Below are positions 8,394 to 18,454 of a stretch of 28,562 bases of DNA, one piece after another. Both the position numbers and the translations under genes were made by a program. Numbering within the stretch: the first letter of the stretch is position 1; each line of letters starts with the position of its first letter. The notes under the pieces were generated by a model. That model saw nothing but the letters and a program-made list of their open reading frames with translations. It had not been told where the DNA came from and ran no database searches. The stretch comes from Candidatus Melainabacteria bacterium (GTDB lineage Bacteria > Cyanobacteriota > Vampirovibrionia > Obscuribacterales > Obscuribacteraceae), in the NCBI GenBank assembly GCA_014380105.1, contig JACMKL010000106.1, positions 1 through 28,562 of the forward strand, given 5' to 3'.

Positions 8394-9341
8394 TCAAGCT
8401 CTCGAGAGCAGTTTGCTATTCAAGATTGACTTATAGTCGAACACATCTAGATACTGGAATGTGTAAGCTGCAATCGCTTCTTTTTCTTCTTTGGAAAGCT
8501 CATTAGCTGTGGCAATATTGGCTTCCGGTGTAGCTTTTCGAATTGTGCCCCAGGGATAGATTTCTTCCAATTGAGAGCCATTCCATGTTGGAGTTTTCAG
8601 AGTATCTGATGATTCTAATCCCATTTTTTCGAGTACTTGACCGAGCGCCTTTTTGGAGTCGGACATTACGTCTTCAGCTCTTACAATGTGCATTCTGTCT
8701 GGATATTTTTCCTTAAACATCAAAGCATGATACTGATTGAGGGTCCAACCGAGCATGTAGTGATTCAACGAAAGCGGCACGGGGCGCTTCTTCGTATCAG
8801 CGTATGCGGACCAGGGGTTTCTCACTATGTGCAAAACATGGGAGGTCGGCAGGTCGTTCAAAATCTTATCGGAGTCAACGCCAATGATGGGGCTGTAGCC
8901 CACGTGCACGCATTCTTCGCCCGAGCGTTTGAAGTTTTTCCAAGCCTCAAAAGTTGCTTTGTAAAATGCGGCCATGTTGTTTGCGCGCGAACGCCCAGTT
9001 TTCAAAACATGCTCAACGTAGTGCTTCATGCGATCTTCGTCCGAAAAATCAAATTCCATATGTCTGAATTTGCTGACTTTCGGAGTGAGGGCGCGCACTT
9101 TGCATTCTTCGTCAATAATTGCCTTGTAGTCTTCCTGCGGTGTCGCTTCCAGGGAGAAAACCGGCCATCTGTACTTGACGGGAAACATCGACGAAAGGTG
9201 ATCGTTGACCAGGCGTGTTCCTGGCTGCGATTCAAATGGATAGACAAACAATTGCGGATGGCCGTCTAAAAAACGATGCGTCGTATTGCCACCATTTTCG
9301 TACATGGCACCAAGCATCAGTAAACGGAATTCGCCGCTCAT
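8394..9341 (-). CDS. Sulfotransferase-fold protein with non-canonical PAPS motifs
   Basis: LMLGAMYENGGNTTHRFLDGHPQL..PFE, VLHIVRNPWSAYAD and IVRAEDVMSD.K..L..V...MGL occur in Sulfotransfer_3 order and spacing. ATGA overlap with the upstream gene. Confidence 0.75.
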   Translation of the reverse strand: MSGEFRLLMLGAMYENGGNTTHRFLDGHPQLFVYPFESQPGTRLVNDHLSSMFPVKYRWPVFSLEATPQEDYKAIIDEECKVRALTPKVSKFRHMEFDFSDEDRMKHYVEHVLKTGRSRANNMAAFYKATFEAWKNFKRSGEECVHVGYSPIIGVDSDKILNDLPTSHVLHIVRNPWSAYADTKKRPVPLSLNHYMLGWTLNQYHALMFKEKYPDRMHIVRAEDVMSDSKKALGQVLEKMGLESSDTLKTPTWNGSQLEEIYPWGTIRKATPEANIATANELSKEEKEAIAAYTFQYLDVFDYKSILNSKLLSRA

Positions 9342-10642
9342 TTTTTCTTACCCCTCGTTAATAGACTAGAAGATTTACCAGAATTCGCATCAGTTGTCGA
9401 TTGAAGACGCTTCATACTTGGCTTCCCGGCGCTTAAATCGGTCTCAAATGCGTAGAAGACAAGGTTTTCATTTTTCAAGTCACGTTTCAAAGAGAAGGGC
9501 AATCCGCCGGACATCACAACTGGCATGCTTTCGACCGCAAAAATCTGATTTCCGGACGCCCAGGTGATACTGCCAAGAATACGACCGCTTTTGACATCGA
9601 CCGCATGAACGCCACAGACACTTTTCGACACATCCAGACCAGGAGCATATTGAGAGAAACGCGGAATCACGCGTGAAGTACCAATAAAGGCCACATCACC
9701 AGCAAAACACAAACCGCGCGTCCAGCCCGGCAGTTTCGCAGCGATGCTGCTCTTACCGTCTTTAATCTCACATAACTCGCCATATCCGGAGTTGTCTACA
9801 AACAATCGTTTGCCATAGAAGCGAGCTGAATGCGGTCGTGTCAGTCCTCTAACTATTGGCTCTCTGGTTTTGCCACTGAAAATTACTCCTCGACCGTCAA
9901 CTTGATAATTCGGCTCGCCTGGTCTACTTGTCGAAACAACAGCGGAAGATGCGGAGAAGTACGAATCTGCCAGAGTTTTTCCGGCAGCAATAGAATTCAT
10001 CTGGATATGGTTTTGCTCGAAAATTGGCTTGTGCTTATCTTCAATACATTTTGGCCACCAGACTCTTTCAAAGCCTTTTTCAAAATCTAGAGTAACGATG
10101 GCATTGTGTCCGACAGCATTGCCATGTAGATGACCGTCAATAAGGGCCAGGTCATGCATATAGATGCAGCCAGGCAAATAAAGTGAGCGAGTTACAACTA
10201 AATTCTTTTCGACACTCTCTGGCAGTTCTACATCTAGTCTATTCAATAGACCAGCCACCGGTCGCAATTCGAGCAGCTGATTTGGATTTCTGGTGCTTGC
10301 TACAAAAACCTTCTGATTCTGTACATCAACCGCCACCCCAGATGGATGGGGCAACGGCAAATAAGTGATGGACGGTTTTCCGGCGCTTTGACTCAGAGAA
10401 AGCAGCAAATGCTCGTATTCGCGACTGACTATTAGAGCAATTTTTTGACGTTCTAAAATATCGAAAAATGCGCCTGTCACCTTGTATTTAAGCAAAGTCG
10501 GGTCAGTGGATTCTGCATCTTTCCACATACTAGATACTTGAGCAGCGTCGCGCCACTCAGCGTTATGTCGCGCCCACAGCGCATTGAGTGCTTTACTCTG
10601 CTGATTTTTCTTAGGCTTTATTTTTTTTACAGCCGGTGGCAT
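9338..10642 (-). CDS. TIGR03032 / DUF4915 family beta-propeller protein
   Basis: MHDLAL, QMNSIA, GLTRPHSARF, DNSGYGEL, LPGWTRGL..GDVAFIGTSR, IFAV motifs; no signal peptide seen. Confidence 0.82.
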   Translation of the reverse strand: MPPAVKKIKPKKNQQSKALNALWARHNAEWRDAAQVSSMWKDAESTDPTLLKYKVTGAFFDILERQKIALIVSREYEHLLLSLSQSAGKPSITYLPLPHPSGVAVDVQNQKVFVASTRNPNQLLELRPVAGLLNRLDVELPESVEKNLVVTRSLYLPGCIYMHDLALIDGHLHGNAVGHNAIVTLDFEKGFERVWWPKCIEDKHKPIFEQNHIQMNSIAAGKTLADSYFSASSAVVSTSRPGEPNYQVDGRGVIFSGKTREPIVRGLTRPHSARFYGKRLFVDNSGYGELCEIKDGKSSIAAKLPGWTRGLCFAGDVAFIGTSRVIPRFSQYAPGLDVSKSVCGVHAVDVKSGRILGSITWASGNQIFAVESMPVVMSGGLPFSLKRDLKNENLVFYAFETDLSAGKPSMKRLQSTTDANSGKSSSLLTRGKKK

Positions 10643-11341
10643 TCAGTTTTTTGCCTCGCGCCACAGTTCATAAGCGCCCCAGTACATGCGAAAAGCAGAG
10701 CCATAATTGGTTGTGGATTTACCACCATGCCGTTTTGTTGAAAGGACGGGCACTTCAATAACAGGATAGTTTTCTCTTCGGCAAATCCAGTTAAACTCAG
10801 CATCTATGAGATCATCGTCGCGCGTGAGCTGCATCAGTTTTTCAAATTTTCTTGGAAAAACTTTTGGGGTGCCATTGATGTCCCAGGTTGGCAGGTCAAA
10901 GAAGGCCCTGCATTCCAGGTTATAGATCAGTGAGCCTAGCCGGCGGCGCCAATTATCTCGTATCTTGCGATTTGCTTTAATGACCACTTGTGGAAAAGCG
11001 ACTGCGTATAAAATATGTAAAACAAGATGCTCTGGGCTTGTGCGAGCGGAATTCGTGTAGCAGATCAAGTCACCGGTTGCTTGCTTCAATCCCAGGCGAA
11101 CTGCTAAACCCCAGCCACCCTGGGGGCTGTCGAGCGTTTTTATATAAGAAAACTTTTGCGCCAGAGCCTGACAGACGGAAGGAGAATTATCGCGACAGCC
11201 ATTGGTGACCAAAATTATTTCAAGATTTGATTGAACTTTTTCGAGCGCATTTACGTATTCACTAATAATGGGCTCGATATGATCTGCCTGATTGCACACA
11301 GGCAGAATTATCGAAATCAAATTGTCTCTGCTATTTGCCAC
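10643..11341 (-). CDS. GT2 glycosyltransferase (polyprenyl-phosphate sugar synthase-like)
   Basis: ISIILPVCNQ, EIILVTNGCRDNS, GWGLAVRLG...ATGDLI, DINGTPKVF, YPVIEVPV...RHGGKS. 232 aa with no TM helix; canonical DxD absent. Confidence 0.85.
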   Translation of the reverse strand: MANSRDNLISIILPVCNQADHIEPIISEYVNALEKVQSNLEIILVTNGCRDNSPSVCQALAQKFSYIKTLDSPQGGWGLAVRLGLKQATGDLICYTNSARTSPEHLVLHILYAVAFPQVVIKANRKIRDNWRRRLGSLIYNLECRAFFDLPTWDINGTPKVFPRKFEKLMQLTRDDDLIDAEFNWICRRENYPVIEVPVLSTKRHGGKSTTNYGSAFRMYWGAYELWREAKN

Positions 11342-17551: not shown

Positions 17552-18454
17552 TTGGAGCGGCCAGTGCTGGCAGAATATCTTTTAAAAGAATTGCCTCATA
17601 GTGAAATTCCCGATTCCGGTTTTGACGGAATCAGTGAAACGCTTCTTATTTCAATTCCGAATATCGACACAAAAGAAGGGCTTTGCCTTCTTCATCGCGG
17701 CAAACTATATAGTTTGCACATACCGTCGTGTTCCGGCTTGTGGCTGGAGGGTCAGAAACTTTATGTTTCGCTCTTGTCACCTGATCACATGCGTCTGCGC
17801 ATATATGAACCTGGCAAAACGACGAAAGAATTCTTGAACACATCCATTGGTGATATTCACGACTTGCGCATTTTCGGCGGTGAGCTGTATGCAGTCTCGA
17901 CTTCTACAAATGAAATAGTGACTTTGTCGGAAACAGGCACAATTTTGAAGCGATGGGTATTTCCAGGGATTGGCGATTCTTGGCATATCAATTGCATTGA
18001 TGTCTGGGGTGAAAAAATCGTGGTGTCCGCTTTCGGAAAATTTCCACACTTCCGTGCCTACAAAGGGCGTGTCAAGGAAGCTGGGATAGTGTTCGATATG
18101 GAAAGCCAGGAAATTTTGCAAACACACTTATCGTGCCCACATACACCCAGGTTGGACGAAGTCGGCAGAAAAATGATCTGTGATTCCAGAACCGGACGAT
18201 TGCTATTTTTTGATCAAGACAAAGGCAAAGAAGTGATGTTCGATGGTGCATTCACGAGAGGAATTGCATTCAGCGACAAACATATTTTTGTGGGCTTAAG
18301 CAGCCTGCGCCACAGAGTCGGCATCAAGCCTGGAGCTGGCACACAAGCGAGTGCAGAAATTGGCATTGTGGATTTCAAAACACTGGAATGCTTGAAAAAG
18401 GTAGCAATTCCGCGGCGTGAAATTTATGACGTCACTCTTCTTCCGAATAATTGA
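17552..18454 (+). CDS. Second DUF4915/TIGR03032-like beta-propeller protein
   Basis: DIHDLR, VSTSTNEIVTL, DSWHINCI, LSCPHTPR, DSRTGRL, FTRGIAF..HIFVGLSSLR, EIYDV. TTG start is uncertain; no signal peptide. Confidence 0.75.
   Translation: MERPVLAEYLLKELPHSEIPDSGFDGISETLLISIPNIDTKEGLCLLHRGKLYSLHIPSCSGLWLEGQKLYVSLLSPDHMRLRIYEPGKTTKEFLNTSIGDIHDLRIFGGELYAVSTSTNEIVTLSETGTILKRWVFPGIGDSWHINCIDVWGEKIVVSAFGKFPHFRAYKGRVKEAGIVFDMESQEILQTHLSCPHTPRLDEVGRKMICDSRTGRLLFFDQDKGKEVMFDGAFTRGIAFSDKHIFVGLSSLRHRVGIKPGAGTQASAEIGIVDFKTLECLKKVAIPRREIYDVTLLPNN

Follow-up and report, generated by a model that had tools for sequence, protein, structure and literature searches.

A sulfotransferase-fold protein with conserved replacements at the PAPS-binding sites in a widespread sugar gene cassette

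The window analyzed here is a 28,562-nucleotide stretch of a Candidatus Melainabacteria genome (Obscuribacterales; assembly GCA_014380105.1, contig JACMKL010000106.1), and the subject of this work is the last gene of a minus-strand operon of three genes, ordered GT2-like, DUF4915 and ST-like. ST-like is the name we use for the sulfotransferase-fold protein encoded by this last gene, and all residue numbers refer to it. The start ATG of this gene and the stop codon of the DUF4915 gene overlap (ATGA). The operon is flanked by sbcD and a cation-efflux gene and sits within a larger glycan region, which includes YfhO-like and PMT-like membrane transferases, a second DUF4915 gene, GT4 genes and an ABC-2 exporter. 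An original prediction, made from the DNA sequence, had described a sulfotransferase fold at 8793-9311 in which both motifs for binding 3'-phosphoadenosine 5'-phosphosulfate (PAPS) carry acidic residues. This range corresponds to Gly11 to Thr183 of ST-like, and the quoted motifs and their positions were confirmed codon by codon (Table 1). The closest relatives of ST-like, at 83-84% identity, are found in metagenome-assembled genomes (MAGs) of Candidatus Obscuribacterales/Melainabacteria.

Table 1. Coordinates of ST-like, its key residues and its operon partners in the window. 3'-PB, 3'-phosphate-binding motif; TPST, tyrosylprotein sulfotransferase; ST, sulfotransferase.
Feature	Position	Strand	Basis
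Sulfotransferase-fold protein ST-like, 315 aa	8394..9341	-	Open reading frame; Pfam Sulfotransfer_3; AlphaFold2; Foldseek and VIA-align
Residues 11-21 GAMYENGGNTT, equivalent of the 5'-phosphosulfate strand-loop-helix	9279..9311	-	TPST1 and OLS ST alignment, model
Glu15, in place of the loop Arg/Lys	9297-9299	-	Alignment, model, conservation
Glu37 (YPFESQ), probable counterpart of the catalytic Glu base in TPST and CurM/OLS ST	9231..9233	-	Invariance; weak local alignment
Tyr149 (VGYSP), in place of the DKSP catalytic Lys (TPST2 Lys158)	8895..8897	-	Profile alignment, conservation
Residues 174-182 RNPWSAYAD, equivalent of the 3'-PB (Arg174 kept, Asp182 for Ser)	8796..8822	-	Three alignments
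Arg186 (TKKRP), directly after the 3'-PB helix, aligns with a TPST1 Arg	8784..8786	-	Alignment, invariance
DUF4915/TIGR03032 protein, 434 aa, translationally coupled upstream partner	9338..10642	-	Pfam DUF4915, 184 bits
GT2-like protein, 232 aa, first gene of the three-gene operon	10643..11341	-	Pfam Glycos_transf_2

ST-like matched the Pfam family Sulfotransfer_3 (PF13469) with 31.4 bits against a gathering cut-off of 27. This match is weak and partial, spanning residues 88-245 only and leaving the N-terminal loop outside. No NCBIfam family matched the protein, and a search of PDB sequences with the single ST-like sequence returned no match; sulfotransferases were reached with family profiles only. 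In the ESM Atlas, searches by features and by shape gave nothing but "putative sulfotransferase" clusters. An AlphaFold2 model, for which the input was an alignment of 44 family members, had a mean predicted local distance difference test score (pLDDT) of 94.3 and a predicted template modeling score (pTM) of 0.92. Foldseek matched this model with a probability of 1.0 to the sulfotransferase domains of OLS (PDB: 4gox) and CurM (PDB: 4gbm) and to TPST1/2, and all of the best matches were sulfotransferases; besides the OLS and curacin domains, the best solved structures included human and tick TPSTs. Comparison of the model with the OLS/CurM ST domains and TPST1/2 by VIA-align gave Z scores of 17.4-18.8. 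Because the model is confident and its best matches by both methods are solved sulfotransferases, the fold proposed in the original prediction is established, and it belongs to the branch of the TPSTs and the CurM/OLS ST domains. The latter are the best structural and profile matches of ST-like (E value 9e-8, Z score 18.8). TPST1 and TPST2 (PDB: 5wri, 5wrj and 3ap1-3) share the fold with a Z score of ~18, and their strand-loop-helix and 3'-PB align with ST-like free of gaps. SULT4A1 (PDB: 1zd1), from a distant eukaryotic branch, was also among the structural matches (Z score 9.6). To our knowledge, it is a conserved orphan cytosolic sulfotransferase with no established PAPS-dependent activity, and its likeness to ST-like is one of analogy only.

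Three positions of the PAPS site have been exchanged in ST-like. In TPST2, Arg78, Glu99 and Lys158 are catalytic residues, and their alanine mutants lose most activity (PMC10951654). ST-like carries Glu15 at the position of Arg78, Tyr149 at that of Lys158 and Asp182 at that of the 3'-PB Ser, whereas the 3'-PB Arg and the Arg following it are kept, as is, probably, the Glu base. The register of the 3'-PB was assessed with a profile of close members, with a diverse profile of 44 members and with an hhalign comparison to the canonical sulfotransferase that this genome also encodes (REPGRSVSS). The family profile alignments to 4gox, 4gbm and TPST1/2 had domain scores of 22-34 bits. In all three alignments, the Arg of the 3'-PB falls on Arg174 and its Ser on Asp182, and because these independent alignments concur, the register of this motif is secure. 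The Asp that the original prediction had seen in place of the Ser therefore stands.

At the 5'-phosphosulfate loop, the profile hidden Markov model paired GGVPRSGTT of TPST1 with SAWNESGGG without a gap and then LDAHP with LDGHP. The OLS ST alignment was consistent with that of TPST1 and likewise put Glu15 on the loop Arg. The local scores of both are weak when taken alone, but the secondary structure of the AlphaFold2 model (strand 7-12, short loop, helix 18-25) supports this register, in agreement with the acidic residue originally reported for the loop. The equivalent loop of ST-like contains neither Lys nor Arg. A third replacement, in addition to the two in the original prediction, concerns the catalytic Lys: LLIDKSPSY of OLS ST pairs with vvvgycPvi of the family profile at moderate posterior probability, which would place Tyr149, or His in distant members, on the Lys of DKSP. 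PFET of OLS ST pairs with PFES of ST-like in a local alignment that is not significant alone. The CurM/OLS ST domains have a PFE/PFET motif at the presumed base, and Glu37 lies as far from the HP motif as TPST2 Glu99 does, give or take one residue. We infer that Glu37 is the likely counterpart of the catalytic Glu. Residues 40-145 carry invariant motifs of their own that set ST-like apart from the TPSTs, and it also differs from them in having no membrane anchor.

We examined 108 family sequences, 81 from more than 10 phyla and 27 distant relatives with 24-59% identity. Glu15, Glu37, Tyr149, Arg174, Asp182 and Arg186 are invariant in the 81. Among the distant relatives, Glu37, Arg174 and Arg186 are present in 27/27, position 15 is Glu in 12 and Asp in 15, and position 149 is Tyr in 9, His in 18 and Lys in none. 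Position 182 is Asp in all but one of the 27 (26/27), giving 107 of 108 overall, and position 15 is acidic (Glu/Asp) in 108/108. Both acidic substitutions define the family, and by these alignments the substitutions are family traits, ancient and fixed rather than products of chance. The residues conserved across the deep family include Ala12, Gly17, Gly18, Glu37, Pro151, Arg174, Pro176, Asp182 and Arg186. These fall on the four classical active-site elements, so that the protein still appears to have its functional center at the old active site.

The family numbers thousands of proteins, and these states are fixed throughout it. A word-indexed search returned 3624 clusters at 90% identity, the best 120 of which were all 71-99% identical to ST-like and came from several phyla, and an exhaustive search returned 517 representatives at 50% identity. 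The close subfamily is present in at least 313 species genomes, a lower bound because it was taken from the alignment of close members and covers only that subfamily. No match was found in a plasmid collection. A sample of 200 genomes from the phylum of the source organism contained no further copy, and the distribution there is therefore patchy.

The genes around ST-like were compared across 80 species-genome loci. The full cassette comprises a split transketolase (TK-N and TK-C), the GT2-like protein, DUF4915, ST-like and a short-chain dehydrogenase/reductase (SDR), in the order TK-N, TK-C, GT2, DUF4915, ST-like, SDR in Leptothermofonsia, a Chloroflexia MAG and a Blastocatellia MAG. The partners were found in the flanks of the 80 loci at frequencies of 77 (DUF4915), 75 (GT2), 63 (TK-C), 60 (TK-N) and 57 (SDR). 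Gene order is nearly always the same, the cassette is syntenic in more than 10 phyla, and even relatives of only 26-41% identity retain the same partners. In the 42 loci that hold all six genes, ST-like is the most conserved and slowest-evolving member, with 105/317 columns invariant and a mean pairwise identity of 73.7% compared with 57-65% for the five partners, a contrast that is somewhat inflated because the loci were chosen by similarity to ST-like itself. ST-like is under very strong purifying selection.

Dependence on activated sulfate was addressed by a census of 50 cassette-bearing genomes. Enzymes that use PAPS or adenosine 5'-phosphosulfate (APS) need ATP sulfurylase, and those that use PAPS additionally need APS kinase. 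The markers were APS kinase, Sat (PF01747) and PAPS_reduct (PF01507, which covers CysD and CysH), and three positive-control genomes of the same set scored strongly for Sat and PAPS_reduct. APS kinase was strongly matched in 36 of the 50 genomes, absent from 10 and represented by weak matches alone in 4. The only weak match examined, in the closed 6.7-Mb Obscuribacterales chromosome G245, was shikimate-kinase-like. In 14/50 genomes, from several phyla, there was no APS kinase, no Sat and no CysD/CysH (G204, G206, G210-G212, G214-G216, G224, G228, G235, G245, G247 and G250, with cassette loci L037, L042, L047-L049, L051-L054, L067, L073, L085, L098 and L103). Because these 14 lack ATP sulfurylase of either type, CysH and APS kinase, they should make neither APS nor PAPS. 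They are apparently without sulfate assimilation and must live on reduced sulfur.

Each of the 14 genomes has exactly one Sulfotransfer_3 match, and in the five that were checked by position, this sole match is the cassette gene; the same five have no Sulfotransfer_1 match. Two or more Sulfotransfer_3 matches, and up to 17, were found in 30 of the 36 APS-kinase-positive genomes, and extra Sulfotransfer_3 genes were confined to such genomes within the set of 50 (Fisher p 4e-8, calculated on related genomes that are not independent and on matches that are not copy numbers). The census therefore indicates that ordinary sulfotransferases follow PAPS synthesis, whereas the ST-like family does not. 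The genome from which the window derives falls on the other side of this divide: it has an APS kinase on contig C11 and one canonical Sulfotransfer_3 gene on contig C709 (L003:902-1663), which encodes an intact HMRSGST (HMRSGSTLL) and REPGRSVSS and adjoins a GalE-like epimerase gene. For this reason, ordinary sulfation may take place in this organism too, and the argument for PAPS independence rests on the family rather than on this genome.

ST-like could nevertheless be a PAPS-dependent sulfotransferase after all, which binds PAPS in a rearranged manner through further conserved basic residues, such as Arg23 and Lys184/Lys185/Arg186, and sulfates the cassette sugar. The sulfotransferase fold with its Pfam match above threshold, the retained 3'-PB Arg174, the many invariant Arg/Lys residues and the APS kinase found in the source genome and in most of the cassette genomes would all fit such an enzyme, but it would have to operate with carboxylates at both phosphate sites and with Glu and Tyr/His at the very Arg and Lys sites whose mutation cripples TPST2 (PMC10951654). 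It would also have to persist in 14 genomes, one of them a closed chromosome, that have no APS kinase, Sat or CysD/CysH, although canonical sulfotransferases track APS kinase. We consider this reading very improbable.

Still less credible is sulfate transfer from APS or from a different sulfo donor that carries no 3'-phosphate. The exchange of the 3'-phosphate Ser for Asp would favor a free 3'-OH, by the general analogy of NAD and NADP enzymes; however, the 14 genomes, which lack both ATP sulfurylase markers (PF01747, and PF01507 for CysD), cannot make APS, and the residues that work on the phosphosulfate, namely the loop Arg/Lys and the catalytic Lys, have also been lost. Because three PAPS residues are exchanged, two of them to carboxylates, the exchanges are fixed, and the protein is under stronger constraint than its partners and persists in genomes without APS or PAPS synthesis, ST-like is very probably not a PAPS- or APS-dependent sulfotransferase. 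The original prediction had proposed a ligand without the 3'-phosphate, such as APS, a different transfer or a scaffold. The first two proposals are the best supported, by the purifying selection and the conserved active-site residues, but APS itself is disfavored by the 14 genomes.

The scaffold proposal would make ST-like a non-catalytic pseudoenzyme that has retained nothing but the fold and that joins DUF4915 and the GT2-like protein in a complex, either to lend structure or to present the substrate. Consistent with this, three canonical catalytic or cofactor residues are replaced, ST-like is translationally coupled to DUF4915 here and adjoins it in 77/80 loci, the GT2-like partner also lacks the DxD motif, and fused DUF4915/ST-like gene calls, possibly artifacts, exist in metagenomes. 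However, the replaced positions have not drifted but are fixed to specific new residues over 24-100% identity, and the most conserved residues of the deep family lie on the old active-site elements, with Glu37 invariant. ST-like is also the slowest-evolving gene of the cassette, which would be unusual for a mere scaffold, although possible for a hub with many contacts. A scaffold is therefore an unlikely description of ST-like, if a less remote one than either sulfotransferase reading.

On the strength of the conservation pattern and the retained Glu37, we somewhat favor the view that ST-like is no scaffold but an active enzyme, in which the sulfotransferase fold has been repurposed for a new ligand. 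The former PAPS cleft most likely holds a ligand without a 3'-phosphate. In NAD-specific enzymes, an Asp discriminates NAD from NADP; by analogy, Asp182 would read free ribose hydroxyls and select a ligand whose ribose 3'-OH is free. In place of the phosphosulfate, Glu15 would hold a cationic group or a diphosphate coordinated by a metal. Possible donors are nucleotides or nucleotide sugars that have a free 3'-OH and are bound through a metal, as well as adenosine-containing cations, for example S-adenosylmethionine; the glycine-rich D/E-x-G-G-G loop faintly recalls motif I of methyltransferases. The SDR and the split transketolase would build an unusual sugar, probably a keto sugar to which a two-carbon branch is added; ST-like would act on it next to DUF4915, and neighboring membrane glycosyltransferases would place this sugar on envelope glycans. 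There is perhaps an even chance that the full proposal holds, namely that the fold has been turned to sulfate-free catalysis in a first PAPS-independent catalytic family, in which carboxylate-rebuilt pockets accept another donor and the protein, together with DUF4915, finishes a branched envelope sugar in more than 10 phyla.

Several observations weigh against a repurposed, PAPS- and APS-independent enzyme. APS kinase is present in the source genome and in 36 of the 50 cassette genomes. The 14 negative genomes are for the most part MAGs whose completeness is not stated; genes for sulfate assimilation tend to lie in clusters, so a single missing contig could remove all three markers. Glu15, Tyr149 and Glu37 were mapped by weak or moderate local alignments and predicted secondary structure. 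Arg23, Lys184, Lys185, Arg186 and many other invariant Arg/Lys residues could reach the nucleotide pockets. Selection of the 80 loci by ST-like similarity will have inflated its apparent conservation to some extent. Finally, the GT2-like protein, without DxD, and DUF4915 have no recognizable catalytic motifs, as would equally be expected in a non-catalytic assembly. When aligned to ArnC, the GT2-like protein reads NSA for DAD (the DxD motif) and TNG for DDG, so that the nucleotide-binding DD has become TN; it has no membrane helices and is 68% identical to the Leptothermofonsia copy. The model of DUF4915 (pLDDT 83) is a generic six-bladed beta-propeller without an enzyme-specific match, and its 50 best Foldseek matches are YWTD/NHL-type propellers.

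The CurM/OLS ST domains show that this branch of the fold can serve group activation in complex pathways. They differ from ST-like in being PAPS dependent, with RSG(S/T)T and DKSP where ST-like reads YENGGN and VGYSP, and in being domains of polyketide synthases, whereas ST-like is a stand-alone protein in a glycan cassette and, unlike canonical sulfotransferases, also occurs in genomes without PAPS synthesis. A literature search for "PAPS-independent" sulfotransferases retrieved only the arylsulfate sulfotransferases (ASSTs), which are beta-propellers with a sulfo-histidine relay; ST-like has the alpha/beta sulfotransferase fold and no propeller. No ASST was among the 50 best Foldseek matches of the DUF4915 model.

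The cassette resembles the Arn system of 4-amino-4-deoxy-L-arabinose (Ara4N) modification and the Gtr/CsbB-YfhO three-component glycosylation systems in its SDR acting on a nucleotide sugar, in a GT2 protein related to ArnC/DPM1 and in neighboring GT-C transferases (YfhO-like and PMT-like in the window, PMT_2 at other loci). Neither type of system includes a sulfotransferase-fold protein, a propeller or a transketolase, and it is the cassette GT2 that lacks DxD. For split-gene transketolases, hydroxyacetyl branching of a keto sugar has been proposed, but not proven in vitro, in miharamycin/amipurimycin biosynthesis (PMC12247030). Those pathways likewise have a two-subunit transketolase beside a sugar oxidoreductase in a sugar-tailoring set, but they belong to Streptomyces secondary-metabolite clusters with no reported sulfotransferase-fold partner (PMC12247030). 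By analogy, split-transketolase branching is the best available model for the early steps of the cassette. Literature searches combining sulfotransferase, transketolase and GT-C retrieved unrelated clusters only, and no paper was found on DUF4915/TIGR03032; the cassette is undescribed in the literature searched.

Thousands of family entries in databases carry the name "sulfotransferase", which would lead readers to expect sulfated glycans on the surface of cyanobacterial relatives and of Chloroflexota, Acidobacteriota, Planctomycetota, Actinomycetota and other groups. For this family, that expectation is probably wrong. Because ST-like is the slowest-evolving part of a cassette found near-unchanged in more than 10 phyla, the cassette product is likely to be an unrecognized, widespread envelope sugar. 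Knowing what this old fold does with Glu, Tyr/His and Asp at the sites of Arg, Lys and Ser could uncover a new use of cofactors, and solving the role of ST-like would give the DUF4915/TIGR03032 family a first function.

Some features of the cassette vary between genomes. In the source genome it is split over two contigs, with TK-N, TK-C and SDR forming a separate operon on contig C504 (L106:1858-4590). The same split was seen in the nearest Obscuribacterales relatives (L025-L032), whereas most other loci have the full six-gene order. The ThDP (thiamine diphosphate) motif GDG of the transketolase N subunit reads SDA, both here and in Leptothermofonsia. A dead transketolase was considered and rejected because this change spares the metal-binding Asp, and the remaining ThDP motifs are retained. 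Distant relatives of ST-like (32-41% identity; L022 and L024) adjoin RfbF/RfbG-like genes of the CDP-glucose (cytidine diphosphate glucose) pathway, a hint that the precursor used by that subfamily may be a CDP-linked 4-keto-6-deoxyhexose; such genes were not found in the flanks of the compact cassettes. At one distant-relative locus, an APH-type kinase replaces DUF4915. The metagenomic gene calls P0264, P0140, P0175 and P0183 join parts of ST-like in-frame to DUF4915 or SDR. These calls are mostly fragments, which may be true fusions or artifacts of read-through or frameshift, and they were not used as evidence. In the window itself, the second DUF4915 gene (17552-18454, plus strand) encodes a shorter, divergent protein of 300 amino acids and heads a plus-strand operon that continues with a GT4-like gene and a gene for a 764-amino-acid protein without a Pfam family. 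One glycan region thus carries two DUF4915 genes.

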